The notes beneath the pieces are model-generated. The model was not told the DNA's origin, made no database searches, and saw nothing but the letters and a program-made list of their open reading frames with translations. Source: Methanocaldococcus indicus (GTDB lineage: Archaea > AGJL01 > Methanococci > Methanococcales > Methanocaldococcaceae). From it: 64,000 nt of DNA. This document shows, piece after piece, positions 8,781 to 40,192 of this stretch (its first letter is position 1; each line of letters opens with the position of its first letter). The stretch is taken from NCBI RefSeq assembly GCF_049554935.1, contig NZ_CP186926.1, positions 1,120,001 to 1,184,000 of the forward strand. The letters are read 5' to 3'. The translations under genes and the position numbers were made by a program.

Positions 8781-9480
8781 ATGCTAACCACACTTAAAGA
8801 ATTACTCGTTAATGGTTTAAATACTTTAGGTATAGCCAATTCGGATAACTTGGTAGATTACTGCTTGGTTAGAACTTTAACCGAGATAAAGACAATTAAA
8901 GCAATATCTGGAGAGATTTTAGAAATTCATCGAACAACCATAATCAAAAAACTTCAAAAGCTATCGGAAATTGAGAACTGCTTTTATACTCATCTACTAA
9001 ACCTTCCCAACATTTTAAATAATCGTAAATTTAAATTTTCAATAATAATTGATTCAACCTTATTGAGAAGATATAGTAAAAATGTATTTGTTTGGCAGTT
9101 CTATTAGATACAATTACGTAGAAAATCATAAAAAATTATATCAAGAACAAATAAACTGCTGTATTTTTAATAAAAAAAAGGATTATACGATATACACCAC
9201 AATAAAACCAAGGAATATTAAATCGACTGATGTATATTTAAGAATTATAGAATCAATATCTAAAATTATTAAGAAAACGGTCGTTGGTGATGGTTTTGTA
9301 ACAATAAAGAAAATTTTAAGGAGATGTAATGAATTGGGAATCAATTATATTGGTAGAATCAGAAAAAACATAAAAATTGAAGTTTTCGGTAAAGATGTTA
9401 AAATAGAAGATATGTTTAAAAAGGACTTCAACGAAAATAAAGCTAAATTTTGTGATTTTCTTTACATAAATTATTTATAA
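8781..9480 (+). pseudogene. Degenerate DDE transposase (IS4/IS701/ISH3-like), frameshifted and truncated
   Basis: IIIDST first Asp motif, VVGDGF second Asp motif, YIGRIRKN; split over two frames with no C-terminal Glu region. Confidence 0.7.
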
Positions 9481-9671
9481 TACCTAAAATAAAGTTATAT
9501 AACGTTACTGTATCATACTTCCTATATCTTCTATTGTATCTTTTCCAGTATCCGGGTCTTTTTTTGCATTTTTCTTCACTCATATTTTTTATTACTTCAT
9601 TATACATTTTTATGTTTTTTCGACAACCTTACACATATAGAAATTATTTTTTGTTATTTTTTGGTGAGAGT

Positions 9672-10604
9672 ATGAAAGTTGGAATTACAGCAATAGTTCC
9701 ACCTGAGATTATTTACGCAACAAATCATACACCTTTAGATTTAAACAACTTTGTTCCACAATCTAATATAACTCCAAAAAATAAACTATGTGCCTGGACT
9801 GCTACATGGAGGGACTTAATTTTAGAGGATAAAATTAAAATTGATAAATTAATTGTTGTTGCAGGTGGAGATTGCCAAAATTCCCTTGTTGATGCTGAAA
9901 AGATAGAATTAAAGAAAAAAATTCCAACACATTATTTCTTTTATCAATTTGGAGATAAAAAGCACTTTGAAAATGAAATAAAAAAACTTATTAATTTTTT
10001 AGGAGGAGATGTTGATAAAGATATTTTAAGAGAAGTTTACAAAATAAAGAAACTTGTAAAAAAAGTCGATGAATTATGCTACAAAGACAAAATAAATGGG
10101 AAAGATGCGTTTTATACTATAATCTCTGCAAGCGATTTAAAAGGAAATCCAGACGTATATAAAAAAGAAATCAATAATTTATTAAACAAAGATGAAAATG
10201 TCGAATATAGTCATAGAATTGCTATAATAGGAATTCCTCCAATTTTTATAGATTTTTATGAATATTTAAATGAAATAAATGTACATTGTGTTTATAATGA
10301 GCTACCTTATGAGTTTATAAGAATGGGAGGATATTCAATAAAGAGTATTGTAGATACATATTCAACATACACATTTGCTAACCATATAAATAAAAGGATA
10401 AAGATTATAAAGAGAGAGCTAAAAAAAAGAAAGGTCGATGGAGTAATTCATTATACCCAAATGTGTTGCCATCATAAATTGGAAGATGAAATTCTCAGAG
10501 AATTTATTGATTATCCCATGCTAACAATAGAGGGGGATATTCCTCAAAAAACACCTGAACAAACAAAGTTAAGGATAGAAGCATTTATAGAATTGTTGGG
10601 ATAG
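9672..10604 (+). CDS. 2-hydroxyacyl-CoA dehydratase (HgdA/B/D) family Fe-S protein, short form
   Basis: VPPEII.A, LCAW, GGDCQN, DGVIHYTQMCCH, L.IEGD, KLRIEAF.E motifs; GGTGAG RBS before ATG 9672. Confidence 0.8.
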   Translation: MKVGITAIVPPEIIYATNHTPLDLNNFVPQSNITPKNKLCAWTATWRDLILEDKIKIDKLIVVAGGDCQNSLVDAEKIELKKKIPTHYFFYQFGDKKHFENEIKKLINFLGGDVDKDILREVYKIKKLVKKVDELCYKDKINGKDAFYTIISASDLKGNPDVYKKEINNLLNKDENVEYSHRIAIIGIPPIFIDFYEYLNEINVHCVYNELPYEFIRMGGYSIKSIVDTYSTYTFANHINKRIKIIKRELKKRKVDGVIHYTQMCCHHKLEDEILREFIDYPMLTIEGDIPQKTPEQTKLRIEAFIELLG

Positions 10605-10606
10605 CC

Positions 10607-11287
10607 ATGATAGGTATTGATGTTGGTTCAACAAACATAAAAATCGTAGACGGGAAGAGTTTTAAAAAATATCCAATAATTAAATTAAATGAAATATTAG
10701 AAAAATATAATAATGAAGAATCTTTTGCGACTGGATATTTTAGAAAGAGATTTAAAAATTACATAACTGAAATTACTGCTGCTATATATGGAATTGATAA
10801 AGATGTTGAAGTTATAATCGATATTGGGGGACAAGATACAAAGATAATAAACACAAAAACATTAGAGTTTATAATGAATGATAAATGTGGAGCAGGGACT
10901 GGATTATTTTTACAAACTATAGCAATGTATTTAAATGTTCCTATCGAAGATTTTGGAAAATATTATTCAAAAAATCCTCTAAACTTGAATAATACTTGTG
11001 CTGTTTTTTCAATTTCAGAAATAATTAACTACCTCGTGAGTGGCTATACTATTAAAGATATTATAGCATCTGTAAATTACACTATAGCAAAGAAAATAGC
11101 TAATATTAATCCCTATGAATGTGAAACTCTTACTCTAATTGGTGGAGTTGCAGAAAATAAAGCATTTGTGAGATATTTTAAAGAAATTACTGAGAAAGAA
11201 GTTTATGTTCCTAAAAATCCGCAATTTATAAATGCAATAGGGGCGAGAAAATATGGAATTAAATACTCAACAAAAAATCATCTTTGA
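10607..11287 (+). CDS. Acyl-CoA dehydratase activase (HgdC/BadF-BcrAD ASKHA ATPase, [4Fe-4S])
   Basis: GIDVGST, ATGY, DIGGQDTK, MNDKCGAGTG, TCAVF, GGVA.N, A.GA. Confidence 0.9.
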   Translation: MIGIDVGSTNIKIVDGKSFKKYPIIKLNEILEKYNNEESFATGYFRKRFKNYITEITAAIYGIDKDVEVIIDIGGQDTKIINTKTLEFIMNDKCGAGTGLFLQTIAMYLNVPIEDFGKYYSKNPLNLNNTCAVFSISEIINYLVSGYTIKDIIASVNYTIAKKIANINPYECETLTLIGGVAENKAFVRYFKEITEKEVYVPKNPQFINAIGARKYGIKYSTKNHL

Positions 11288-11828
11288 AATTTACGATTTA
11301 TACAAAAAATTTGAATTAATTGAAAGTAATAACAAATGTAAAAAGCTATCTAAAAGAATAGAAAAAATTAAAAATGGAATTGTAGTTAAAGATATTTATG
11401 ATGTTAATTATGTTGATAGAGTTCAGGAGATTTTATTAAATTACAGAGAAATTTGGGGTTTTATTTATAAATCATCAATAAAACAGTGGATTGCAACATC
11501 TAAAACTATAAATGTAGCTGGAATTTTTTATAAGGATGATTTAATTGGAGTTATGGTTTATGGAGAGAGACCAAATTATTTGAAAATTAATTACATTGCA
11601 GTAGATAAAAAATTTAAAGATAAATCTCTTGGAGGATATTTTATTCAATTTTTAGAGAAAAAAGCTAAAAAATTAAAAAAGAAAAAAATATATGCAGAAG
11701 TTCCAAAAATAAATGAGAATGGACTAAGATTTTTTATAAAAAATAGATTTGTAATTGAAGGAATTTTAAAAAATCATACAAGAAGGGACAAAGATTTAGT
11801 TTTAATGGCTAAATATTTAGAGGGATAA
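11253..11828 (+). CDS. GNAT family acetyltransferase
   Basis: IAVDKKFKDKSLG motif A, N..GLRFF.K..F..EG motif B. Confidence 0.85.
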   Translation: MELNTQQKIIFEIYDLYKKFELIESNNKCKKLSKRIEKIKNGIVVKDIYDVNYVDRVQEILLNYREIWGFIYKSSIKQWIATSKTINVAGIFYKDDLIGVMVYGERPNYLKINYIAVDKKFKDKSLGGYFIQFLEKKAKKLKKKKIYAEVPKINENGLRFFIKNRFVIEGILKNHTRRDKDLVLMAKYLEG

Positions 11829-11829
11829 A

Positions 11830-12756
11830 ATGGTGGAATTTTTTGCATCGTTGACCATTTCTCCAGGACAAATTAGAAAAATGGTTGAACTTTTAAAGAA
11901 ACACGAACCAAAAAAATGGGCTTTTGAAAATGTGATTTTTACACCGATAGTTTCATCAGAAGGGACTATAAAAGAAATTAAAAATTTAAAAAGAAAATAT
12001 AAAACAACTATTATGTTTGATAGTGGTGGTTATTATGTTCAACAGGGAAAGTTTGAAATATATCAACTGTTTTCCTTTTTAAGGGAATTTTATGAAAACA
12101 ATAAATGGGGAGATTGGTATGTTCTACCAGATTCTCCACCAGTGTCATCTGATAGTATAAATATTGCTTGGGGAAAAGTCCATGAGACAGTTTATTTTGC
12201 AAAGAGTTTTGCAGAAGAATTTAATGGAAAAATAGAGAAAAAATTTGTTCCTGTTGTTCAGGGCATTAATGAAGAACAAATCTATTATTGTATCAAAAAT
12301 TATGCTGATTTGAATGTTAAAAGAATAGGTTTTGGAAGTTTTGGAACTTGTGGAAAGAATAATCAGATTAATCGACTAACAAAAGAAAGTTTAGAAAACT
12401 TAAAATATTTGTCTATGTTAGCAAGAGATTATGGATTTGAGTTACATGCCTTTGGTATTGGTGGAGGAAGTTCTGTAAATAAAATTAAAGACTATGTTGA
12501 TAGTTTTGATAGTAGTGGTTGGGATAAAGCTGGAGGATTTGGAGACATATTTTTTCCAGGTTCGAGAACTATTAACATAACTGGAAAATCTGGAAGAATA
12601 TCTTCAAAAAATTACATAGGTTATGAAGATATGATTGAAAATCTTAGAAATGGGCATAGGTGTTATTTTTGTAAAAATATTGCCAATCTAAAAAAATATA
12701 AGATATATCGGTCATTACATAATATAATAGTGCTTTATGAAATGGTGAAAGAATGA
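11830..12756 (+). CDS. tRNA-guanine transglycosylase (TGT)/DpdA-like base-exchange enzyme
   Basis: MFDSGGY, LPD.P, VPVVQG, LHAFG, VDSFDSSGW, C-terminal HxCxxC...HN Zn site; no PUA domain. Confidence 0.85.
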   Translation: MVEFFASLTISPGQIRKMVELLKKHEPKKWAFENVIFTPIVSSEGTIKEIKNLKRKYKTTIMFDSGGYYVQQGKFEIYQLFSFLREFYENNKWGDWYVLPDSPPVSSDSINIAWGKVHETVYFAKSFAEEFNGKIEKKFVPVVQGINEEQIYYCIKNYADLNVKRIGFGSFGTCGKNNQINRLTKESLENLKYLSMLARDYGFELHAFGIGGGSSVNKIKDYVDSFDSSGWDKAGGFGDIFFPGSRTINITGKSGRISSKNYIGYEDMIENLRNGHRCYFCKNIANLKKYKIYRSLHNIIVLYEMVKE

Positions 12757-13493
12757 GTAGGGGATATCACATTCAACATAATGCAAAACCATCAATTATT
12801 AGAGAATTTATTGAATACAGTCCAAATGCTAAAAAATCAGAACTTAAAGAAGTGTTTTTAAATATAAAACCCAGCATTATAGATGATAATTATACAATTA
12901 TGAATAAACTTATTAATAGAGAAGATAAAAATGAGATTGAAAACCTTTTGAAAATGGATGAGGTAATATTTAATAATTATCTTCATTATAAGCTCTATTC
13001 ATCATCTTTACCAATTGGATGGTCATATAGAAGTGTAATTCATATATTATTTGAAGAATATAAGGATAAAAAAATAAATTACAACGATATTGAACAAAAA
13101 GTTAAAGATAAAGCATTTAATGAAGGTTTGGGAAGTATATCATTTAGTAGCAATAGTGTTCGTGGAGCAATTAATTTTATTAAATCTTTATACCCTTCTC
13201 CAATAGATGAAAATAACATATTCAACCTCAGAGATTATTGTCAACCACATCTCTTATTATGGGGAGTGGATTATCTTTATAAAAAACAATGGGGAGAGGA
13301 ATATGGTTCATTAATGCTTTTGGATAGTGAAAAAATTGAAGAACTTTGTAAATTTTGTTTAATTGATGAAGATGTGTTGGACAATCATTTAAAGGAACTT
13401 GGATTTATGTATGATTTTGTGGAAATATCGATAAAGGCATTTGGGAAGTATATAAGATTAAAAAGAGCTTGGAGTTTTAATGATATCTTATAA
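12753..13493 (+). CDS. Hypothetical protein, possible DUF4007/SspB/BrxA-like winged-helix DNA-binding subunit
   Basis: 246 aa, overlaps the TGT stop; C-terminal F.IDED.L...L.EL....VEI pattern recalls DUF4007; family call is weak. Confidence 0.45.
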   Translation: MSRGYHIQHNAKPSIIREFIEYSPNAKKSELKEVFLNIKPSIIDDNYTIMNKLINREDKNEIENLLKMDEVIFNNYLHYKLYSSSLPIGWSYRSVIHILFEEYKDKKINYNDIEQKVKDKAFNEGLGSISFSSNSVRGAINFIKSLYPSPIDENNIFNLRDYCQPHLLLWGVDYLYKKQWGEEYGSLMLLDSEKIEELCKFCLIDEDVLDNHLKELGFMYDFVEISIKAFGKYIRLKRAWSFNDIL

Positions 13494-13505
13494 AAGGGGA
13501 AAATA

Positions 13506-14015
13506 ATGGATTATATTGTACTAATAAACTATATCAAAAATAATTATTCTTTTAATTGGCTAACAAATAGTCAGAAAAATGCGTATAATATATTAAAAGA
13601 GTATCTTATTTATGATGATGTTATTAATCTTTATGGAAAAAGAGGAGTAGGGAAAACATTTTTAGGATGGGTATTTGCAAAAAATAACAACTTTATATAT
13701 TTTGAAAATGAAGATGCATTTAGAAATTATAAAGTAAAGACAAAAATAAATGCAATTATTGATAATGGCTCATTGAAGGATGGAAGGGAGATTAGAAGGA
13801 TGGTCTCCTTAAAAACCAATAAAGTAATTTACATTTCAAGAAAGAAAATTTTAGATTATGGTATAGAGTTAAAGTTAGATTTAAATGATGTAGAACATGT
13901 TTTAAATAATCTATCTCCAATTATTGGAGAAAATATAAATACTAACATTCAAAATTTGAAAATAAATGATATCGATTTATGGAACATTTTTAAGGGGAGG
14001 GTATATGAATATTAG
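13506..14015 (+). CDS. Small P-loop NTPase-like protein (BrxB-like position)
   Basis: INLYGKRGVGKT Walker A, AIIDN degenerate Walker B; directly upstream of the large ATPase. Confidence 0.65.
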   Translation: MDYIVLINYIKNNYSFNWLTNSQKNAYNILKEYLIYDDVINLYGKRGVGKTFLGWVFAKNNNFIYFENEDAFRNYKVKTKINAIIDNGSLKDGREIRRMVSLKTNKVIYISRKKILDYGIELKLDLNDVEHVLNNLSPIIGENINTNIQNLKINDIDLWNIFKGRVYEY

Positions 14016-17000
14016 TGTATTAGAATTTATAATAAATAAAAGTCCAGTAGTAGATACACAATCAGCCGAAAATTTAATAAATGAACCAGATTCAGTTGCA
14101 GATAAGTATGAAAATCATTTAAAAACCTATATAAAAGTTGATAATGAAGAATTTGATAAGCGATTTGTGAGAGAAATTAAAAAAGGAAAAACTGTAAAAG
14201 GTTATATTTCCGCTCCTTTTGGTTATGGAAAGACAAGTAAAGCATTAAGTTTATGGGAATATTGTAAAAAGAATAACATCTTTTCCATCCCTCCATTTAA
14301 ATTTGATGGAAAGCTTGATACAATAATGGACGCAGTTTATGGATGGACTAGATATGTTTATAAATACAAATATCCTGAATATGTGGACAAAATTGAAAAA
14401 ATTTATAGAAAATATAAAACACTAAGTATAGAAAAAGAAATAGATGAACTGGCAAAAAAAGAACACTTAACGAGAGATGAAGCAAAAAGAATAATTAATA
14501 ATTTCATAGAAAAAGGTAAACTAATTATATCAATGACACCAAAGGACTTGATGAATTTTTTAAAAGAGATGAATGAGATTATAAAAAAACATTTTGATGG
14601 ATTGGCAATTTTTGTAGATGAAGTGCAAGGAATAAAAAATATGGAAACTATTAATAATTTAAGAAACTTTATTTTCGAACTTAGTATTAACAATATAGGA
14701 TTAGGTATTTTATTCATAATTCCTGATTATCAAGAAGAGGACTTAAATATAAGAGCAGGAGATTTAATTGACAGATTACGAAAAGATGGATTTTACTTAA
14801 ATTTAGTAAATATATACAATGTAGATTTTGCAGAAAAATTATGGAAAAAATATGGAGAACTTTTACAATTTAATCCTTATGATATTATAACAAAGGACTG
14901 TTTAAGAAGTATTGGAGAAATATCTTCAAGAGATGATTTAGGAAAAGGTCCAAGAACTGTCATAGGGGCATTTAAATGTGCTTGTATGAAATATAAAGAA
15001 AAATTTGAGCCATACAATGTGTTTGATTTTGTTAATGATATTTTAAATGGTAAAATCGCATACATACAACAAAAATATTTAGATGCTTTAAATGAGGGGC
15101 TATCATTGAAGAAAGTTAATTCCGAAGAAAAAAGAAATGTTATTAAATTATTAGGGGCATTCCCGAGAGGAATAAGTGAAGAAATGATAAAAAAGTATGG
15201 CTTATATGATGAGTATGAAGAACTATCAGATGCTTATTATGGAACTGAGATTGTTTATGCACTTGAGGGATATACTCTAAGAGGATTATTAGACGAAACA
15301 CCAGATGGCTATGTCGAACAGCATATAAGGAAATTTAGAAGTGTATTTGATGAATCTTGGGAGGACGAGATGATTAATGCTTTTATAAATTATATATTAC
15401 CTGAAATTTTCCCAAAGAAAAAAGGATCTCAGATTGTAGGGTGGAGATTTGATAAAAAATACCCAATAAGTAATGGATATTATCACCAACTAACTGGGAC
15501 ATTTAATCCAAAATATCCTTTTAGAATTGTTGGGATATATTCTTTGAGGAAAGAACTTAAAGAAAAAGAAATGACGCTTATTAAAAATTTGGTTAATAAT
15601 GAGTCACCAGATGTTGAATTTAAATTTATATTAGATAAAAACATAGAAAATAACGATTTGATAATTAACTATAAAAATGGAGAAGTTATCTTTAAATTTG
15701 ATGTTTTAAAGAAAGTTGGAGAAGATAAATTACCTGGAGATTTGAAAAAACTTCAACAATATGTTAAACCACAAGAAGTTACGCCAATGTTTATGTTATG
15801 TCTTTTAGATTACTTTGACAAAATAAAAGAAAAAGAAGATGAATATGCAAAGTATGGGGGTGAAATTAATGCATTAAGGTCTATTCTTGTAAGATATTTA
15901 AAAAGATTTTTGTTTTCTGATGAGTTGGCAGAAAAATACGAGTTAAGGAAAAGACAAGAAAAAATAGTCGAAGAAATATTTAATAGAATTTGTGAATATA
16001 AATTTAAAGATTATAGAACATTAATTCATTCTCCAAACTGGCATAGAGATTTAGAGAGATATAGAATTTTATTGGAATCACTTTCAATTTCAAAAAGAAG
16101 GGGTGAAGAATTTGAAACTACTAAAAAAGAACTAGTTTCTAAATTGACTGGAAGTAAGAATCCAAGTGTTGCAGGATTCGATGATGAATGTAAAAATGGA
16201 AAATGGAAGGACTTGATATATTTGGAATATTGGGGTAAAGGAGAAAAAATTAAGGTTAAATTAAAAAAGCATCAACTTGAAGAAAGGATATTAAAAGAAT
16301 TCATTGAAAAATGGACACAACCAATAAGTATTGATGTAATAATTAATTATGGAATTAATTTGGGATACATTCCAGAAGAAGTCGAAGAAATTTTAAAAAT
16401 CCTTGAAAGTAGGAAATACATTGAAATTGATAAAGGATATATATTCAAACTTGAGGAGATAACAAACACTGATGTTTTAAATAAATTTGATGAAATTGAA
16501 AAACTTGCGAAGAAAGTTGCCAATCTTTATAAAAAATATGGAAAAGATATCCCAAACATCCCCATAAAATTATCTAAAAAAGATGAAATTAAGAACCAAA
16601 ATGATTCTGATTTATTATACAAAGAATTAGAACTTTTGGAAAGTTGGGAAAAAACATTAAAAGGATATCATAAGATGATTAAAAATGAAATAGATAAAAA
16701 TAAGGAAGAACTACTAAATGAAATCATAAAAACAAGGGAAAAAACAGAAGGACTAAAAAAGAAAATAGATGACATAAAAGAGGATATTATAAAGACCCAT
16801 TATTCATTAGGGGGAATTGTTAAGCATTTAGAAGAACAAATAAAGATAACAAAAAAGAAATGTAATAAGATATCGAGAGATTTATTGGAATTGAGAGAAA
16901 AAATAAACTCTTCAAGAGATATTGAAACTCTTGCCGAGATTTTAAATATTGCAAATAAAGAAATGGAACGTTTAAGAAAAGAACATACTGACATTAATGA

Positions 17001-17841
17001 AAAATATAATAAATTTAAATCTTGGTTAGCAATTCTTAGAAAATTAGAAGAATTACATGAAAAAATAGATTCCTATAAGGATTATATTGATATTGATGAA
17101 GAATATGAAAGATTTAACGAACTAATAGACGAAATAATAACTAACTTTGCAAGAGATGGGTGGGATTATCTAAACATGGATAAGGACGTTGAAAAAGATA
17201 TAGAATTAATAGAAAAAGACATAAAGAAAAAAGAAAGTAATTTAAGAAACGAATTTAATAAGATTCAAGATGAAATAAAAACAAAAATGGTTATCTTATC
17301 TCAAACACTAAAATCGTTAGATGTTTCTCCGTATTCATACAGAGAAGCATTTAGTATTGAAGATAGAGAGACAGCATACCAAAATCTTGTAAGAAATGTG
17401 AGGTTGTATCTCCAAGAAATTTTAAACAAGTTACATGACTATATTATATCATTAAAAACTGAAGTAGAGGTTAAATTGGGTAATAATGAAAATTATATAA
17501 CTATACTAAAGGAAATAGAAGATAAATTGGACAATATAAATATAGAAATTATAGAAAAAAATAATTTAATAACTGCTGTTGAAGAAATAAAATCAAATAT
17601 ACTTGATATATGGGAAGAAATAGAGAAGACTAGAAAAGAAATAAAAAGAGAAATTATTGAAAAAAATAAATCTGGTAAGTCAGAAGAAGAAATAAAAATA
17701 ATAGAATTATTAAACAAATATGGTGAAATTTCCATTAAAGAACTTACAAAACATTTAAACATGCCTATCGAGGGGACGTTAAAATGTCTATTGAATATGG
17801 AGAATATAGAAATAATTGTAAGGAAAAGATGGAAAAAATAA
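14005..17841 (+). CDS. Large P-loop ATPase with long C-terminal coiled coil (BrxC/SspC/PglY-like)
   Basis: APFGYGKTS Walker A, AIFVDEVQ Walker B, GPRT sensor-like motif, ~450 aa E/K-rich heptads, terminal wHTH-like segment; GGGGAGG RBS before ATG 14005. Confidence 0.75.
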   Translation: MNISVLEFIINKSPVVDTQSAENLINEPDSVADKYENHLKTYIKVDNEEFDKRFVREIKKGKTVKGYISAPFGYGKTSKALSLWEYCKKNNIFSIPPFKFDGKLDTIMDAVYGWTRYVYKYKYPEYVDKIEKIYRKYKTLSIEKEIDELAKKEHLTRDEAKRIINNFIEKGKLIISMTPKDLMNFLKEMNEIIKKHFDGLAIFVDEVQGIKNMETINNLRNFIFELSINNIGLGILFIIPDYQEEDLNIRAGDLIDRLRKDGFYLNLVNIYNVDFAEKLWKKYGELLQFNPYDIITKDCLRSIGEISSRDDLGKGPRTVIGAFKCACMKYKEKFEPYNVFDFVNDILNGKIAYIQQKYLDALNEGLSLKKVNSEEKRNVIKLLGAFPRGISEEMIKKYGLYDEYEELSDAYYGTEIVYALEGYTLRGLLDETPDGYVEQHIRKFRSVFDESWEDEMINAFINYILPEIFPKKKGSQIVGWRFDKKYPISNGYYHQLTGTFNPKYPFRIVGIYSLRKELKEKEMTLIKNLVNNESPDVEFKFILDKNIENNDLIINYKNGEVIFKFDVLKKVGEDKLPGDLKKLQQYVKPQEVTPMFMLCLLDYFDKIKEKEDEYAKYGGEINALRSILVRYLKRFLFSDELAEKYELRKRQEKIVEEIFNRICEYKFKDYRTLIHSPNWHRDLERYRILLESLSISKRRGEEFETTKKELVSKLTGSKNPSVAGFDDECKNGKWKDLIYLEYWGKGEKIKVKLKKHQLEERILKEFIEKWTQPISIDVIINYGINLGYIPEEVEEILKILESRKYIEIDKGYIFKLEEITNTDVLNKFDEIEKLAKKVANLYKKYGKDIPNIPIKLSKKDEIKNQNDSDLLYKELELLESWEKTLKGYHKMIKNEIDKNKEELLNEIIKTREKTEGLKKKIDDIKEDIIKTHYSLGGIVKHLEEQIKITKKKCNKISRDLLELREKINSSRDIETLAEILNIANKEMERLRKEHTDINEKYNKFKSWLAILRKLEELHEKIDSYKDYIDIDEEYERFNELIDEIITNFARDGWDYLNMDKDVEKDIELIEKDIKKKESNLRNEFNKIQDEIKTKMVILSQTLKSLDVSPYSYREAFSIEDRETAYQNLVRNVRLYLQEILNKLHDYIISLKTEVEVKLGNNENYITILKEIEDKLDNINIEIIEKNNLITAVEEIKSNILDIWEEIEKTRKEIKREIIEKNKSGKSEEEIKIIELLNKYGEISIKELTKHLNMPIEGTLKCLLNMENIEIIVRKRWKK

Positions 17842-18734
17842 AGACTCCATGTTACTTAAAAATAAAACATAAACTTTCACTTCTATTTTCTGATTTTGAA
17901 GACATCTCCTATAATGATTTCTGGTTAATGGTAGACAACCCAAATAAAAAACTTCCTCAGAAAAAATTTGTTATAACCGATAAATTTGATTATAGATTAC
18001 CTATTTATGAAATAAATCATAATCCTTTTACACCAGAATTAAACAAAATTATTAGTGAAAAATATCATCTAATTGAAAAATATGTTAAGACACAAAGAGA
18101 TATTAAAGATTATATCGTTGATTATGTTAATACCAAAACTCCAAAAACTGTTATTTTGTATCTTATTGATGGACTATCGTATTGGGACTATATAAATGCA
18201 AGCATAAAATATAATGTTGAACCAATATTTGTCAATGGAAAAACAACAACCGAAAATGGGCTTAAAAATATTGTTTATGGAAAAAATGGCATACCTATTG
18301 CAAAAGAACTTTATAAGTTTGGATATAAAGGCTACGGACAAACTTATTGGAATAGAAAAAATAAATTAACAGATATTTTGTTTAGATACATAAGTGAAAA
18401 GAACATTTTTTATTATGATGAAAACATACACGACATAATAGTTAAAAATAAACAATCAAAGAAATATATTCAAATTTATAAAATTGGATTAGATGATGAT
18501 GCACATAAGTTAAGAGAAGTTAGTAAAAAAAGTATAATTAATAAAATAAAAGAAATATTTGAAAATATAAACATCTTAAGAGATATTCTAAATCAAACTA
18601 ATCAGCCTTATCTTATAGTAATTACTGCTGACCATGGTATAAAGTGGGATTTTACAAAAAAATATAGAAAAGGTTCTCATGGAAACATTTCATTTGAGGA
18701 GTGTTTTGTGCCTTTAATTATAATTGAGGGGTAG
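17829..18734 (+). CDS. PglZ-like alkaline phosphatase superfamily protein
   Basis: LYLIDGLSY, LDDDAH, IVITADHG, SHGNISFEECFVP metal-binding motifs typical of the PglZ domain. Confidence 0.82.
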   Translation: MEKIKTPCYLKIKHKLSLLFSDFEDISYNDFWLMVDNPNKKLPQKKFVITDKFDYRLPIYEINHNPFTPELNKIISEKYHLIEKYVKTQRDIKDYIVDYVNTKTPKTVILYLIDGLSYWDYINASIKYNVEPIFVNGKTTTENGLKNIVYGKNGIPIAKELYKFGYKGYGQTYWNRKNKLTDILFRYISEKNIFYYDENIHDIIVKNKQSKKYIQIYKIGLDDDAHKLREVSKKSIINKIKEIFENINILRDILNQTNQPYLIVITADHGIKWDFTKKYRKGSHGNISFEECFVPLIIIEG

Positions 18735-18736
18735 CT

Positions 18737-19897
18737 ATGTTATTTATTGGAAGAGAAAAACTAAAAGACAGATTAGGAGATGATGTGTATATAGATGCTT
18801 CAAAATCTCATGCAATTTTTATTTGTGGTAAAAGAGGTAGTGGAAAAAGTTATACTTTAGGTGTTTTAGTTGAAGAACTTCAAGAAAAATACTCCGAGTA
18901 TCTAAAAATTATTATCGACCCAATGGGGATATTTTGGACTATGGTAGAGCCAAATGAAGAACAGGAAGAAGAACTTTGGGATTGGGATTTATATCCAGAA
19001 AGATATCCTGTTAAGTTAATAGTCCCTGGGGAAATAGAGGAAAGATTTGACGAAGATGTTATAAAAGAAATGGAAAATAGGGGAGTAGAATTTAAAAAAC
19101 TTCTTTTGAATCCTTCTGATATCTCAGCAGAAGGATGGTGTGATTTATTCAATTTAAATATAAACGAAATTATGGGAATTGCTTTGTATAGGGCAATTGA
19201 TAATATTGAAAAAGATTTTTTCACAATAGATGATATTATTTATGAGGTTGAGATGGATACAAAATCAAAAGAATCTACAAAAGAAGCATTAATAAATCGT
19301 CTAAACATGGCAAAAAAGTGGGGAATTTTTTCAGATGAATACATTCCAATAGAAAATATTTTTGAAAAAAATTCAATAAATGTTATTGATTTAAGTGTTA
19401 TTGAAAGTGGAAGATATGGGTTAAGAGATTTGATTGTATCAATAATTGCAAAATACTTATTTAATCAACGATTGAAAGCAAGAAAAAAAGAAATGTTAAA
19501 TTTACAATCAAAAATGCCAAAAGTTTGGCTGTTTATTGACGAAGCACATAATTTTATTCCTTCTGGGAAATCAACATTATCAAAAGAAATTCTAATAAGA
19601 TGGGCAAAGGAAGGACGACAGCCTGGGTTAAATTTAGTTATAGCTACTCAACAACCATCAGCAATTGACAATGAAGTTTTAAGTCAATGTGATATAATCT
19701 TTGCTCATAAAGTGACTAATAGAGAAGATATAAATGCATTAAATAAGCTCAATCAAGAGTATATGGGAAAGGAACTAAAAGTATATATTAAAGATTTAAA
19801 TAAAGGAGAATGTGTTTTTATTGATGATGAAAAAGAATTCTTAAAAATTATAAAAATAAGAACAAGAAAAAGTAAACATGGAGGAGGAGAAAAGTAA
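18737..19897 (+). CDS. HerA/FtsK-like ATPase (DUF87), no N-terminal HAS barrel
   Basis: ICGKRGSGKSYT, IIDPMG, LFIDEAHNF, KEGRQPG, ATQQPS. Confidence 0.9.
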   Translation: MLFIGREKLKDRLGDDVYIDASKSHAIFICGKRGSGKSYTLGVLVEELQEKYSEYLKIIIDPMGIFWTMVEPNEEQEEELWDWDLYPERYPVKLIVPGEIEERFDEDVIKEMENRGVEFKKLLLNPSDISAEGWCDLFNLNINEIMGIALYRAIDNIEKDFFTIDDIIYEVEMDTKSKESTKEALINRLNMAKKWGIFSDEYIPIENIFEKNSINVIDLSVIESGRYGLRDLIVSIIAKYLFNQRLKARKKEMLNLQSKMPKVWLFIDEAHNFIPSGKSTLSKEILIRWAKEGRQPGLNLVIATQQPSAIDNEVLSQCDIIFAHKVTNREDINALNKLNQEYMGKELKVYIKDLNKGECVFIDDEKEFLKIIKIRTRKSKHGGGEK

Positions 19898-21345: not shown

Positions 21346-21870
21346 ATGGTAGATGTTCCTGTTGAAGTGGCAATGAATAAACCAATGTTTGTAAAATATA
21401 ATAAGCCAATTGATGAATTAATCAACCTAATGGTAAAAAATTTAAAAAATTTTGCTATTTTATTGGATGAAAACAATAATCCTGTTGGTATTGTTACTGT
21501 AACTGATATTATAAGGTATCTTATATTAGAAAAAGGAGATAGAAAAGCACCTGCTTATACTATTGCTACTAAAAAATTAATAACAATAACTCCAGATACT
21601 TCAATAGAAAAAGCTTTAGAAATAATGAAAAAACATAAAATTTCAAAGTTACCAATAGTTAAGGATGGGAAAATAATAGGAATAGTTACAGAGAATGAGC
21701 TTATAGAAATTTTACCATACATATTAGATTCTCTAAAAGAGCTTGTAGATTATCTAAATGATATTATATCAGAAGAGTTAAAAGAAGAAGATTCTAAAGA
21801 CAAAAGTCATCTCCAAAAAGATGAAAGCAATAAACAAATATCATCAAAAATAACTGTTAAAAATAAATAA
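21346..21870 (+). CDS. CBS domain pair protein
   Basis: PVGIVT..D and LPIV..GKIIGIVTE.E CBS repeats; start could be 21316. Confidence 0.85.
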   Translation: MVDVPVEVAMNKPMFVKYNKPIDELINLMVKNLKNFAILLDENNNPVGIVTVTDIIRYLILEKGDRKAPAYTIATKKLITITPDTSIEKALEIMKKHKISKLPIVKDGKIIGIVTENELIEILPYILDSLKELVDYLNDIISEELKEEDSKDKSHLQKDESNKQISSKITVKNK

Positions 21871-25542: not shown

Positions 25543-26403
25543 TTATTTTTTCAGCCCCGGGAAACCGCGGGGAACGAGCACTCCGGCGCGAGGAGTTCCC
25601 TTTGCTCCCCCGGGGCACATCTCCAATATACTCCTTGATAATCCTGTTTTTATAACATTTAAAAAGTAGTTGTTAAACCAGTAGTTTTTAAACTTTTTAA
25701 GAATATACTCACTATAATTATAATCTACATCTACTTTTGCCTCAATTAATATTAATCCTTCTGGAACTGCTGGAGGAGGACTTTCTTTATAGTTGTTAGA
25801 TAAGAGATTATCTATCCAACTTATAGGTTTTTCTTTTAAAGAAACTAAATTTAATGCTGAAACTATTTTCCTAACCATTTGCCATAAAAAGCTTTCTCCA
25901 ATAATATCAATAGTAATAAAAAATTCATTCTCTTTAATATCTATTTTGTATATTGTCCTTATAGGTGATTTTTCTTTACTTTTATCTTTCTTACAAAAGT
26001 TGTGAAAAGATTTAGTCCCTACTAATTTTTTAGCTCCTACTTTCATTAATTCAATATCTTGTCCAATTTTTGGTAAGATATATCTATAATGTCTATATTC
26101 AACTTTTGGTATTTCTTCTATTTCTTTATATCCCAATATCCAAATTCCAAAATTATTTAGTTTATAGTTGATATACTTTATAGTGTTTTCATTTATTTCT
26201 ATTTCATTATTAATATCTAAAACTACAAAATTACCCAGAGCAGATACTCCTTTATCAGTCCTACCTCCTGAATATACAATTTTTTTAGTTTTTAGTAGGT
26301 TAAGGTCTTCAAAAGTATCTAATATCTTATCACAAACTGTCTCCTTATGTGGTTGTTGTTGAAATGAATACCTCCCATCATAAGCAACTTTAAAGATATA
26401 CAT
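25543..26403 (-). CDS. truA: tRNA pseudouridine(38-40) synthase
   Basis: KVAYDG, GRTDKGVSA catalytic motif, FHNF, SFLWQMVR. Confidence 0.93.
   Translation of the reverse strand: MYIFKVAYDGRYSFQQQPHKETVCDKILDTFEDLNLLKTKKIVYSGGRTDKGVSALGNFVVLDINNEIEINENTIKYINYKLNNFGIWILGYKEIEEIPKVEYRHYRYILPKIGQDIELMKVGAKKLVGTKSFHNFCKKDKSKEKSPIRTIYKIDIKENEFFITIDIIGESFLWQMVRKIVSALNLVSLKEKPISWIDNLLSNNYKESPPPAVPEGLILIEAKVDVDYNYSEYILKKFKNYWFNNYFLNVIKTGLSRSILEMCPGGAKGTPRAGVLVPRGFPGLKK
25554..25622 (+). ncRNA. Single-hairpin box H/ACA guide sRNA (Pf9-like, predicted 16S rRNA target)
   Basis: GC-rich patch: lower stem GCCCCGGG/CCCGGGGC, pocket AAACCG(C) / UGCUCC, upper stem GGGAAC/GUUCCC, GA-containing K-turn-like apex, ACA 3 nt from the 3' end. 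Confidence 0.8.
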
Positions 26404-37267: not shown

Positions 37268-40192
37268 CTATTTTTCTCTTTTCCAGTTATAAAGTAAGTA
37301 GGTTATACAGCATAATAGTGTTGCTCCACTTATGAATAATCCAAAGTAGAATAAACTCTGTGGTAAGAAATATATGATTATTGTAAATCTACCATCCTTA
37401 TTTTTATCAAATTCTTTTGGGTTAATATACCATGCGTTTGCAAAACCGTTTGCTATGAAGTGGAAAGTTTCATTTACAGCTGGTTTTTTAAATAAGTAGA
37501 TTATATCCCCCGGAGTAAATCTATACCAGTCATGCTTAGCCTCTTTCACATGAACTTTTGGATATTCTGCCATTATTTGGTTAAAGTTAGTTGATTTATC
37601 TTCTATGTAGATTTTCCACTGTGGATGATATGATTCAGAGAACACCAGGAAGAATGGTTGTGTAGCGTTTTCTACTGATACAATGTATTTTGTTGGGTTG
37701 ATTTTTTTGAAGGTTATTGTTGGAGTTGAAGATTTAATTTCATTTAGTTTAGTTAAGTTAGTTAAATCTAATGTGTGCAAGGTTATATTATTATCTTTGA
37801 TTATATGATTAATTTGTATTATTGCTCTTTGATTTGGGGGGATTACAATTGGAAAGTTTATGGGTTTTGTCCCCATACCCATCCAGTCAGTTTCCCACCA
37901 TACTCCTATAATATCATCTATTTGTTTTCCATTTTCATCTATTTTAGTAATTATTAATGGTTTAGAACCAGTTTTAATGTAGATTAGTGTTGAATTATAG
38001 GCACTCCAGCCAGTTGAACTATACGGTGGGAATTTGTATGGACATGTTTTTAGGGATGAGAAAGTCAGAGTATCATTTAGTTCTTTTCCATCTGTTCTTA
38101 TAACTGATTTCCATCCTATATAGTATCTTGCATCTATAGAATTGTTTGATAAATTATTCCAGCTGAATGGATTTTTATTTCCATTGGTTGGTTTTATAGA
38201 TATTGTGTGTTTAGTTATGATTATTGAATTATTGTAATTTTTAAGGAATTGCCACTGTTCTTTATTTGTTTGGTTAGAAAGGATTATTATGTTGTTTTCA
38301 ATTTCATAGTCATCCAAGCTTAGTATTATGAACATGTCATTAAGGCTACTATTTAAGAACACTATATTTCTAACAGAATATATTTTAGGTAAGCTATATT
38401 TCAATGAATATATCTTAACATATCTATTATGCGAAGTGCTATTATTAATGATATAGAGTTTATTATCAAGTTGTTTATTTATTAATTCTAAATTATATAG
38501 ATTTTTATTTGGAGTGTGCCATGGTAAAACATCCATTCTTAATACTATATATTTTATATTTAACATATATAAAATTTTTTTAACTTTTGAGATATTAGTT
38601 GAAGTGTATATATTTTTTTCGAGAATTCTAATAAAATCTCTGTTAAATATACAAAGATCTGAATATAATGTGGGTTTTGGAGAATATAATATTATTGGAT
38701 CTCCTCCCTGACCTTCAGTCTGATAAAAAGTTTTAAGGTAGTAAGGTGAAGCAACCATTGGTAAATACATAACTCGTATGTCTTTTTTATCGTTTTTTAA
38801 CAATAGTTGAATTTTTTTATATTCTTCAGGAGTTTCAAAAACATTTACCTTCGCCCATAGCTTATGGTAGTTATCTGAAAGATAGTTATAAGAAAAATCT
38901 CCAGATAAGTATGTAGGAATATTAAGTAATAGAAATATCAAAATGGCTATTATTAACATTAATTTTTTTGTTTTTATATTATTTAGCTTTTTTAAAGTTA
39001 GAAAAATTGAAAGCCCTACACAAATCGATAGTCCTAAAGTAGCAATAAAAATTAAATGTTGAGGGGATCTAAACAAAAACATATAGGATATTACATTACT
39101 TAAAACATTTTTAAGAGGACCCTTTAATCCTGATGATAAACCAACACCAATTAGGAATACGAAATACCAAAAGAGATATTCCCCATATATTCCAAACTTT
39201 GTAGTTTTATTATCTTTAAACATTATACCTAATAAACATAATATAACAGGGGCTATCAAAATGAAATACCCTACAGATCCAAAAAAATCAAGTACTACGT
39301 GCGTATAAAAATGTCTATCAAAATACCCCGAAGTCGTAAATGCAAGAAAAGTATCTGGAACATTATGTGCAAATGACATATATACTTGCATTTTTGGTTG
39401 TGAAATTGCGTATTCTATTTGAGTAGATGTTAAAAAATTAATAAAATAAAATAACCACCACGCATTCAGTAGTAAAATCATGAGAAAAACAAATAACAAA
39501 AAAATTTTATTAATTTTTATTTTTTTTATATTTAGTGTTATATATATCATTATAATAAATATAAAAATAAATAATTTTTGTAGAGACATTGTTATAGCTG
39601 AAAATAGCAAAACAAATATTATTAAGTCCCTAATGGGTTTTTTACTTGTTATAATAATACGTCTGAAGTAAAGGAGTATCAATGGAAAAATCGAATATGA
39701 TATTAATTGGGTGTATGCTCCCCCAATAATTTCATTAAATAAATAGGGTGAAAATCCGTAAAACAACCCTCCAAAAAACGAAGCAATATATATTATATTA
39801 GAATCTAATTTTTGCTCTGAGTAAGATACAATAATATTGTATATTAAATAAAACATAGAAATAGATGAGATGCTTAAAATAAGAGATATAAAAAGCTTGG
39901 ATGTTAAACCTCCCCCAAATATCTCACATAAAATTCCTTGAATGATCCAATATGGGATGTTAGTTATAAAATACCCAATTTCAAAACCAAAACAATTTTC
40001 ATCATATACAAAAAAAGATTTTTTTATTAAAGTATTTGCACTAATTGATGTTGATGGAAATGACCAATCCCAGTTATGTCCAACTGTGCCATTATTTACC
40101 AAAAAATTATGTATGCTAAAAAAACTAAGAAAAATGTAAAATAAAAATACAAATGCTAATTTTTTGTTAATTGATTTGACTGTTTTAATCAT
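37268..40192 (-). CDS. Large multi-TM GT-C-like membrane protein, paralog of 30727-32787
   Basis: HNWDW loop, FYGFSPY, LNIKYIVL, INPTKY, FSESYHPQW, ANGFANAW. Confidence 0.6.
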   Translation of the reverse strand: MIKTVKSINKKLAFVFLFYIFLSFFSIHNFLVNNGTVGHNWDWSFPSTSISANTLIKKSFFVYDENCFGFEIGYFITNIPYWIIQGILCEIFGGGLTSKLFISLILSISSISMFYLIYNIIVSYSEQKLDSNIIYIASFFGGLFYGFSPYLFNEIIGGAYTQLISYSIFPLILLYFRRIIITSKKPIRDLIIFVLLFSAITMSLQKLFIFIFIIMIYITLNIKKIKINKIFLLFVFLMILLLNAWWLFYFINFLTSTQIEYAISQPKMQVYMSFAHNVPDTFLAFTTSGYFDRHFYTHVVLDFFGSVGYFILIAPVILCLLGIMFKDNKTTKFGIYGEYLFWYFVFLIGVGLSSGLKGPLKNVLSNVISYMFLFRSPQHLIFIATLGLSICVGLSIFLTLKKLNNIKTKKLMLIIAILIFLLLNIPTYLSGDFSYNYLSDNYHKLWAKVNVFETPEEYKKIQLLLKNDKKDIRVMYLPMVASPYYLKTFYQTEGQGGDPIILYSPKPTLYSDLCIFNRDFIRILEKNIYTSTNISKVKKILYMLNIKYIVLRMDVLPWHTPNKNLYNLELINKQLDNKLYIINNSTSHNRYVKIYSLKYSLPKIYSVRNIVFLNSSLNDMFIILSLDDYEIENNIIILSNQTNKEQWQFLKNYNNSIIITKHTISIKPTNGNKNPFSWNNLSNNSIDARYYIGWKSVIRTDGKELNDTLTFSSLKTCPYKFPPYSSTGWSAYNSTLIYIKTGSKPLIITKIDENGKQIDDIIGVWWETDWMGMGTKPINFPIVIPPNQRAIIQINHIIKDNNITLHTLDLTNLTKLNEIKSSTPTITFKKINPTKYIVSVENATQPFFLVFSESYHPQWKIYIEDKSTNFNQIMAEYPKVHVKEAKHDWYRFTPGDIIYLFKKPAVNETFHFIANGFANAWYINPKEFDKNKDGRFTIIIYFLPQSLFYFGLFISGATLLCCITYLLYNWKREK

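Follow-up and report, generated by a model that had tools for sequence, protein, structure and literature searches.

The 64,000-nucleotide stretch of Methanocaldococcus indicus DNA analysed here (the window) derives from a low-GC Methanococcales archaeon and carries, among housekeeping genes such as DUF2118, DUF2096, HcyBio and HMG-CoA reductase, an operon of nine forward-strand genes packed with almost no gaps (9672-19897; Table 1). The first four of these (9672-12756) encode a compact HGD-D-type Fe-S protein (HgdD), an HgdC-type ATP-dependent activase (HgdC), a GNAT acyltransferase and a divergent guanine transglycosylase (TGT), spaced by 2 nt, a 35-nt overlap and 1 nt, respectively. A sequence-only reading had placed a short HgdD-like gene, a short HgdC-like gene and a GNAT gene as the first cistrons running into the TGT gene, and open reading frame (ORF) coordinates and profile matches confirm this layout. 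The HgdD/HgdC pair is the subject of this analysis and is probably a reductase of the 7-deazaguanine preQ0, serving the modification of a DNA base. A scan for sigma-70 promoters and terminators carries no weight for an archaeon with such AT-rich DNA.

Table 1. Genes of the operon and the transposase fragment directly upstream of it, with positions in the window.
Feature	Position	Strand	Basis
IS4/DDE transposase fragment, directly 5' of the island	9082..9480	+	PF01609 E 1.5e-4, NF033591
Compact HGD-D Fe-S protein (HgdD), 310 aa	9672..10604	+	PF06050 99.4 bits (cut-off 28.4)
HgdC/HadI-type ATP-dependent activase, 226 aa	10607..11287	+	TIGR00241 136.1 bits (cut-off 125.4), PF01869 90.8 bits
GNAT acyltransferase, 191 aa	11253..11828	+	PF00583 30.4 bits (cut-off 20.7)
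Divergent TGT/DpdA-like guanine transglycosylase, 308 aa	11830..12756	+	Homologues, residue pattern, predicted fold
246-aa protein, BrxA/DUF4007-like slot of BRC	12753..13493	+	Assigned by position only
169-aa small P-loop protein, STAND/BrxB-like slot	13506..14015	+	Weak AAA/nSTAND3 matches; orthologue in L084
BrxC-like ATPase, 1291 aa	13966..17841	+	Orthology to Haloplanus protein
PglZ-like protein, 316 aa	17784..18734	+	PF08665 E 0.06; orthologues in L084, L103
HerA/FtsK-type ATPase, 386 aa, final operon gene	18737..19897	+	PF01935 1.4e-13

The HgdD gene starts at an ATG (9672) with GGTGA just before it, the ORF itself extending 5' to a TTG at 9534. The protein exceeds the PF06050 cut-off, which places it in the HGD-D superfamily. 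It is not a bona fide HgdAB/HadBC, as each locus has one HGD-D gene and the HadC model NF052456 scores 18.4 bits (cut-off 700), nor a DCCP, for which NF040772 gives 41.2 bits (cut-off 350). The lengths of HgdD and HgdC had been called unusual in the sequence-only reading; the sizes were correct, and 310 aa is typical of a compact family whose members span about 303-351 aa. To judge from their sequences, both genes are intact and their shortness is a family trait, truncation not being the cause. A search for relatives recovered 254 homologues, those with 46-53% identity deriving from Methanosarcina barkeri, ANME-2, Methanoperedens and Thermoplasmata. Three cysteines (C40, C68 and C266) are invariant in 20 aligned sequences, and each is conserved in 63 of 66 family representatives; C266 aligns with a HadC cysteine, and by this conservation the three are the probable ligands of a [4Fe-4S] cluster. 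An AlphaFold model (pLDDT 95), from which the fold is taken, resembles HadC, DCCP and BzdO/MbdO about equally (TMq 0.79-0.81, 14-21% identity), with a Foldseek probability of 1.00 and TMq up to 0.81 to 3O3M_B, 6ENO and 8S02_B. Against the PDB, the family profile reached an E-value of only about 3e-8, indicating sequence distance from the solved relatives.

The true DCCP of the host genome lies elsewhere (NF040772, 507.8 bits), and this DCCP is a core gene, present in 30 of 40 Methanococcales genomes. In the host, DCCP and a full-length 245-aa activase are convergent with QueC (G000:C1:160663-163400, L098); this was considered and rejected, the adjacency occurring in one of the 30 Methanococcales loci and probably being due to chance.

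In the activase, about 20 residues are missing from the N-terminal subdomain, and the ATP motifs DVGST and DIGGQD are retained together with Cys94 and Cys131, such that the family model, the ASKHA ATP motifs, the two cluster cysteines and an HGD-D partner are all present. The solved structures closest to it are 4EHT, 7YYL_E and 1HUX, corresponding to HadI, DCCP-R and HgdC. Of 76 other archaeal loci, from metagenomes and outside Methanococcales, 63 have room (at least 800 nt) for an activase gene directly 3' of HgdD, and 62 of these carry one there. The two proteins are fused in 15 of the 22 longer or representative relatives scanned, which shows that HgdD and HgdC work as one unit.

The TGT of the window scores below the gathering thresholds of PF01702 (17.6 against 26.3 bits) and of the DpdA family PF23859 (17.3 against 27 bits). 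Its identity is secure despite these scores because most of its 318 homologues carry PF01702, its clade has an invariant Asp and Zn-site pattern (D64, D101, D227 and H276-x-C278-xx-C281...H297), and its AlphaFold model (pLDDT 87.5) has the fold of Zymomonas mobilis TGT (2OKO) and Pyrococcus horikoshii ArcTGT (1IQ8), each at a Foldseek probability of 1.00. The catalytic and Zn-binding roles of these residues are presumed by analogy. GNAT-TGT fusions of 459-489 aa occur among the homologues and also in the comparison loci L100 and L104. A GNAT gene followed by a gene of the same TGT-like clade was also observed in a Thermocrinis Great Boiling Spring virus (BK013347; L136 / L101 3953-5130), where it adjoins genes for a sliding clamp, a helicase, a PD-(D/E)XK nuclease and PolA, which suggests that the virus uses this module to modify its own DNA. 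Three viral records, two of them incomplete, carry the TGT-like gene, and searches of these records found no QueF or QueC. From the defence-gene context and the placement of the viral module beside replication genes, we infer that the substrate of the TGT-like enzyme is DNA and not tRNA.

By gene content and order, the operon appears to match the BREX-Related Capture (BRC) system (PMC12839542), which was described computationally and whose parts, in the available text of that work, are PglZ, a BrxC-like DUF6079 protein, a STAND NTPase, a BrxA-like DUF4007 protein, a universal HerA/FtsK translocase, a GNAT and a TGT, the GNAT sometimes being fused to the TGT. The same text suggests that the BRC mark may be limited to dPreQ0. 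HerA, GNAT and TGT are confirmed in the operon of the window. The HerA-like protein matched the PADLOC models for HerA (1.5e-28) and mad8 (2.8e-24), and was the only one of the nine operon proteins to match the PADLOC library. The remaining BRC assignments (BrxC-, PglZ- and BrxA-like proteins and the small NTPase) are putative and draw on weak matches, conserved gene order and orthology to a Haloplanus locus. The 1291-aa protein has no Pfam match itself, and is related at E 3e-94 to a Haloplanus orthologue that is annotated as a BREX ATP-binding protein and matches PF10923 (BrxC_BrxD) at 2.3e-6. The PglZ mentioned in the sequence-only reading can be recognised only weakly in the 316-aa protein, through the Pfam match and a protein-atlas lead to PglZ clusters (0.88 and 0.84). 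The 169-aa protein has only weak P-loop matches, and the 246-aa protein belongs to no Pfam family and has orthologues at the same position in L084, L103 and L104, with which the operon shares its gene order. In the Methanothermococcus island (L002 11684-16028), the 246-aa and 169-aa genes are separated by four additional genes, one encoding a RAMP-superfamily protein (PF03787, 2.9e-19) and the other three belonging to no family.

The Fe-S pair is, on comparative sequence grounds, an integral part of the island. HgdD, HgdC, GNAT and TGT genes occur in the same order in 5 of 40 Methanococcales genomes, which are all of those with a full-length HgdD match. Matches of any length occur in six of the 40, one being a 62-residue fragment, which makes the pair accessory, in contrast to the core DCCP. 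The four-gene order is also found in L001 and L002, which may be among these five genomes, and in the metagenome contigs L009-L012; among named genomes, those of Methanocaldococcus sp. 16A and Methanothermococcus sp. Ax23 carry the operon's nearest relatives. Homology of the window to L001, L002, L009 and L010 sets in abruptly at about 9662, at the start of HgdD. The Methanococcales islands are 74-91% identical and retain HgdD/HgdC, with flanking genes that vary between genomes and with transposase remnants beside or inside the islands. Besides the fragment in the window, such DDE transposases include one in L084 (8563-9873, reverse strand) between HerA and HgdD.

This L084 island shows a second arrangement, in which TGT, 246-like, 169-like, BrxC-like, PglZ-like and HerA genes are followed by the inserted transposase and then by HgdD-HgdC; in L044, HerA runs straight into HgdD. 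Following a first tree, which left out 11 duplicate rows and rows aligned over fewer than 280 positions, a more careful maximum-likelihood tree of 37 rows was built with four distant family members as outgroup. It placed the Methanococcales clade outside a 29-row group (support 99/94) and a clade of L084, P0015 and P0091 (100/100) inside that group. The BRC-linked rows require two changes on the careful tree, and none of 200 bootstrap trees united the two groups. On this tree, HgdD/HgdC is associated with BRC in two separate clades. For P0015 (M. barkeri 3) and P0091, we infer the linkage solely because their contigs have the same lengths as contigs with TGT-like matches. Co-occurrence of HgdD/HgdC with TGT, proposed as a check in the sequence-only reading, was thus found in the BRC/TGT operons of two clades.

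An orthologous BRC locus with the same gene order as the window is present on a plasmid of Haloplanus sp. HW8-1 (L103), with E-values of 4e-58 for TGT, 3e-94 for the BrxC-like protein, 6e-19 for the PglZ-like protein and 3e-146 for HerA; the Haloplanus TGT exceeds the Pfam cut-off (41.6 bits). Genes for QueD, QueE and QueC (8986-11007) lie immediately upstream of this locus, and its operon ends in HerA, GNAT and QueF genes. The QueF gene (21428-21826) encodes 132 aa and is annotated merely as a hypothetical protein. Its product matches PF14489 at 62 bits and the preQ1 synthase model TIGR03139 at 81.9 bits, just under the cut-off of 86.9, and is nearer to Bacillus subtilis QueF (4F8B, 9e-8) than to QueF-Like (5JYX, 1.5e-4), which is an amidinotransferase according to the available text of PMC5485725. 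It keeps the catalytic Cys and a VESKSLKKF segment, one position off the NADPH motif E(S/L)K(S/A)hK(L/Y)(Y/F/W) given in the available part of 10.1101/2023.04.13.536721. The plasmid would be self-sufficient for preQ1, because QueD-QueE-QueC and QueF bracket the BRC locus. This aerobic version of BRC thus carries QueF where the methanogen versions carry HgdD/HgdC. No QueF was found in any of the 40 Methanococcales genomes, none of the proteins of the window's operon has QueF homology (PF14489/T-fold), and the Haloplanus QueF as a single query against 7,679 ORFs (the window plus L001-L104) found only its own locus. In the host genome, which is 99.25% complete, QueC and ArcTGT are present, and QueF and QueA were not found.

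Outside BRC, the pair recurs beside 7-deazaguanine genes. Bacterial-type tgt (TIGR00430, 452 bits) and/or queA lies 0-6 kb upstream of HgdD, usually divergently, in 11 of the 76 other archaeal loci, including ANME/Methanosarcinales-like contigs; these 11 represent at least four subclades. Upstream sequence of 1.5 kb or more is available for 48 loci, nine of which are linked in this way. In the bacterium Ilyobacter polytropus, a 330-aa family member with 31.5% identity and all three cysteines conserved opens, together with an activase, a tightly spaced same-strand operon with queD, queE, folE and queC on pILYOP01. No QueF, tgt or queA was found on this 961,624-bp replicon. Most of the 76 loci have varied ordinary chromosomal neighbours that are not fermentation pathways, and two are BRC-linked. 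A gene annotated as 'FolE2' directly upstream of the pair in eight loci, all of one syntenic lineage, was rejected as a further link, since it encodes MptA of methanopterin synthesis (TIGR00294, 457.7 bits). In 18-19 of the 76 loci (L013-L040, for example L013 3586-4488, reverse strand), HgdD-HgdC is followed by convergent genes for a conserved 120-aa protein of no known family and a 137-aa PNPOx-like FMN-binding protein, which could be an electron-donor module.

Taken together, these observations give a probability of roughly 55% that HgdD/HgdC is an ATP-driven reductase converting preQ0 to preQ1, with subsequent acylation by the GNAT and insertion into DNA by the TGT-like enzyme. Preference is given to preQ0 reduction because this one function fits all four contexts of the pair. 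The starting substrate would be host preQ0 made for archaeosine. Ferredoxin would reduce the activase, which is probably dimeric with a bridging [4Fe-4S] cluster coordinated by Cys94 and Cys131. ATP hydrolysis would drive electrons onto the three-Cys [4Fe-4S] cluster of the HGD-D protein, which would convert the preQ0 nitrile into the preQ1 aminomethyl group in a four-electron reduction. The GNAT would then acylate the primary amine, before or after insertion of the base, and this enzyme points to preQ1 over preQ0 because it needs an amine, which preQ1 has and preQ0 does not. The TGT-like enzyme would exchange a guanine in DNA for the modified base, which would mark self DNA and allow the BRC proteins to tell self from non-self. 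The presence of either HgdD/HgdC or QueF in BRC loci suggests a mark derived from preQ1 rather than dPreQ0. The sequence-only reading had proposed that an ATP-driven Fe-S reduction, with the preQ0 nitrile as one possible target, precedes acylation and is coupled to the TGT; comparative genomics makes this the best-supported reading. Its further suggestion of an anaerobe-specific DNA base would hold for the route and not for the base, which aerobic Haloplanus should reach through QueF.

A broader proposal, rated slightly below an even chance, is that the short HgdD/HgdC pair is a new, non-homologous, ATP-dependent Fe-S nitrile reductase and the missing preQ1 synthase of anaerobic archaea and some bacteria that lack QueF, and that it was recruited twice by defence islands to make an undescribed preQ1-derived, GNAT-acylated DNA base, probably N-acetyl-dPreQ1. 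Precedents in phages, as described in the available part of 10.1101/2023.04.13.536721, are the DNA bases dPreQ1, methyl-dPreQ1 and formyl-dPreQ1, and phages that encode QueF always contain dPreQ1 or a derivative of it; that part contains no mention of 'acetyl'.

Several points weigh against preQ0 reduction. The enzyme superfamily is not known to reduce nitriles, and such a reduction takes four electrons. Gene content and order, their conservation and their genomic associations are established, and the whole functional case is built from this gene context, including the proposed substrate, product, acyl donor, DNA target and defence role. In 63 of the 76 loci with close homologues, the fetched flanks contain no tgt/queA or BRC genes; the sequence-only reading had counted homologues in metabolic contexts without TGT linkage as evidence against itself, and this was half borne out, as the linkage is missing from most loci and their contexts are not fermentative. 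The 22 long or representative matches scanned included no fusion of the family to a que, TGT or GNAT domain, nor did a word-index search of longer proteins yield one, the latter being weak evidence. No HgdD-like gene was found in the phage records or IMG/VR contigs searched. The genome-wide comparison of HgdD/HgdC with QueF covers Methanococcales only, and the Ilyobacter search covered pILYOP01 only, such that the main chromosome may hold QueF, tgt and queA. The L084 contig was read from the TGT gene onward only, so that its data do not speak to a GNAT gene upstream. Pairwise BLAST does not establish orthology among the GNATs of the window, the Haloplanus locus and the fusions (E 0.003 and 0.5). 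Finally, GNAT and TGT modules occur with no HgdD/HgdC or QueF nearby in an Oscillatoria plasmid (as a fusion), the Thermocrinis virus and L100, contexts that would fit hosts supplying preQ1 themselves.

The strongest competing explanation, considered unlikely overall, is that HgdD/HgdC catalyses another reductive step on 7-deazaguanines, namely the conversion of epoxyqueuosine to queuosine in the tRNA setting as an analogue of QueG/QueH, the reduction of preQ0 already inserted into nucleic acid, or the formation of some other C7 side chain. The 11 loci in which the pair adjoins tgt-queA are consistent with this, and taken alone this neighbourhood would suit an epoxyqueuosine reductase just as well, since in DPANN archaea QueH lies together with tgt-queA and HgdDC could by analogy occupy the QueH slot; the available text of PMC8204110, which describes this co-localisation, does not mention QueF. 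Whether the free or the inserted base is reduced is likewise an open question for phage QueF, in the available part of 10.1101/2023.04.13.536721. Reduction of preQ0 is preferred over the epoxyqueuosine step because the host carrying BRC has no QueA, and so no epoxide substrate in that context, and because the Ilyobacter operon is a preQ0 operon, linking the pair to preQ0 synthesis genes and not to queA/tgt. The equivalent slot in Haloplanus, moreover, holds QueF and not QueG or QueH.

It is quite improbable that the pair is a true dehydratase of the acyl-CoA type, making an unusual acyl-CoA such as an enoyl-CoA for the GNAT to transfer to the base or DNA. In its favour, 2-hydroxyacyl-CoA dehydratases and benzoyl-CoA reductases, with which HgdD shares fold and family, use CoA thioesters, and the GNAT gene directly follows the pair with the 35-nt overlap. 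However, the single HGD-D subunit has no alpha/beta partner and scores far under the equivalog models, most family members have no GNAT neighbour, the pair follows HerA in L084 and L044, and the associations with tgt-queA and with queDE-folE-queC would be left unexplained. Least probable of all is a passenger pair that plays no part in base modification, either a general low-potential reductase or an island hitchhiker, as the varied chromosomal neighbourhoods of most homologues and the transposase remnants that flank or interrupt the islands might suggest. Against this, the homology between islands sets in precisely at HgdD, the Methanococcales islands retain the pair, it joined BRC again in another clade at another position, and three further deazaguanine contexts recur.

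The BRC frame and the enzyme superfamily were already known; what is new is the proposed substrate, the displacement of QueF and the acylated mark derived from preQ1. Full-text literature searches returned no paper in which preQ0, QueF or the TGT/GNAT module is connected with this enzyme family. The available main text of PMC12839542 contains no mention of dehydratase, HgdC, BadF, activase, Fe-S, hydroxyglutaryl or benzoyl-CoA, nor of QueF, QueC or preQ1. QueF has been described as a unique class of nitrile reductase (available text of PMC13740343 and PMC7317782), and preQ0 reduction by HgdD/HgdC, if true, would be a second, unrelated biological route of nitrile reduction beside it. The current explanation for organisms that carry bacterial TGT and lack QueF is salvage (PMC5699537). 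Reduction by the pair would also close the gap in queuosine biosynthesis in anaerobes, including archaea with tgt-queA, extend the chemistry of HgdC-activated Fe-S enzymes to the C-N triple bond, provide an oxygen-sensitive, ATP-driven biocatalyst for converting nitriles to amines, and revise the BRC self-mark from dPreQ0 to acylated dPreQ1.

Two features elsewhere in the window were also observed. An H/ACA box snoRNA (Pab160, RF02796; 25554-25619, forward strand) scores 61 bits against a gathering score of 47.4 and overlaps the 3' end of a pseudouridine synthase ORF (25543-26403, reverse strand). A 974-aa ORF that belongs to no Pfam family (37268-40192, reverse strand) lies amid the glycosyltransferase and methyltransferase genes of a surface-polysaccharide cluster.

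Compared with known systems, the pair would share with QueF the reaction from preQ0 to preQ1, and resembles it in placement, being found in a preQ0 operon, by tgt-queA and in the GNAT/TGT module of BRC. The two are not homologous: the pair has the HGD-D fold, a putative [4Fe-4S] cluster and a separate ATPase, whereas QueF has the T-fold, a thioimide-forming Cys and NADPH as reductant. Unlike QueF, the pair is predicted to be oxygen-sensitive and driven by ferredoxin and ATP. HgdAB/HadBC and the class I benzoyl-CoA reductases share with the island enzyme the fold (TMq 0.73-0.81 to 3O3M, 8S02 and 9GAI), the three cysteines and an HgdC-type activase. They differ in having two different subunits of about 380-430 aa, at 14-21% identity, in place of one of 310 aa, and no fermentation or aromatic-degradation genes lie near the island pair. 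DCCP and DCCP-R (6ENO and 7YYL) share with the pair a catalytic part encoded by a single gene and an activase of its own, at equal structural similarity (TMq 0.79-0.81), and DCCP reduces small triple-bonded molecules such as acetylene. The island protein falls short of DCCP by about 60-110 aa, and its conserved cysteines number three, against six in DCCP.

With BRC, the island shares HerA/FtsK, the GNAT and the TGT, together with putative BrxC-like, PglZ-like and BrxA-like proteins and a putative small NTPase, and GNAT-TGT fusions are known on both sides; the loci described here differ in carrying HgdD/HgdC or QueF, whereas the available text on BRC suggests a mark of dPreQ0 only (PMC12839542). 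With Dpd and the DpdA pathways of phages, which produce dPreQ0, dADG, dPreQ1, mdPreQ1 and fdPreQ1, the island has in common a TGT paralogue predicted to insert a 7-deazaguanine into DNA, and tailoring of the dPreQ1 amine also has a parallel in phages, where DpdM methylates and DpdN formylates it (available part of 10.1101/2023.04.13.536721). Unlike Dpd, the island has no DpdB or DpdC homologues, its TGT belongs to a distinct clade, tailoring would be carried out by a GNAT, and the proposed reductase is an Fe-S pair.

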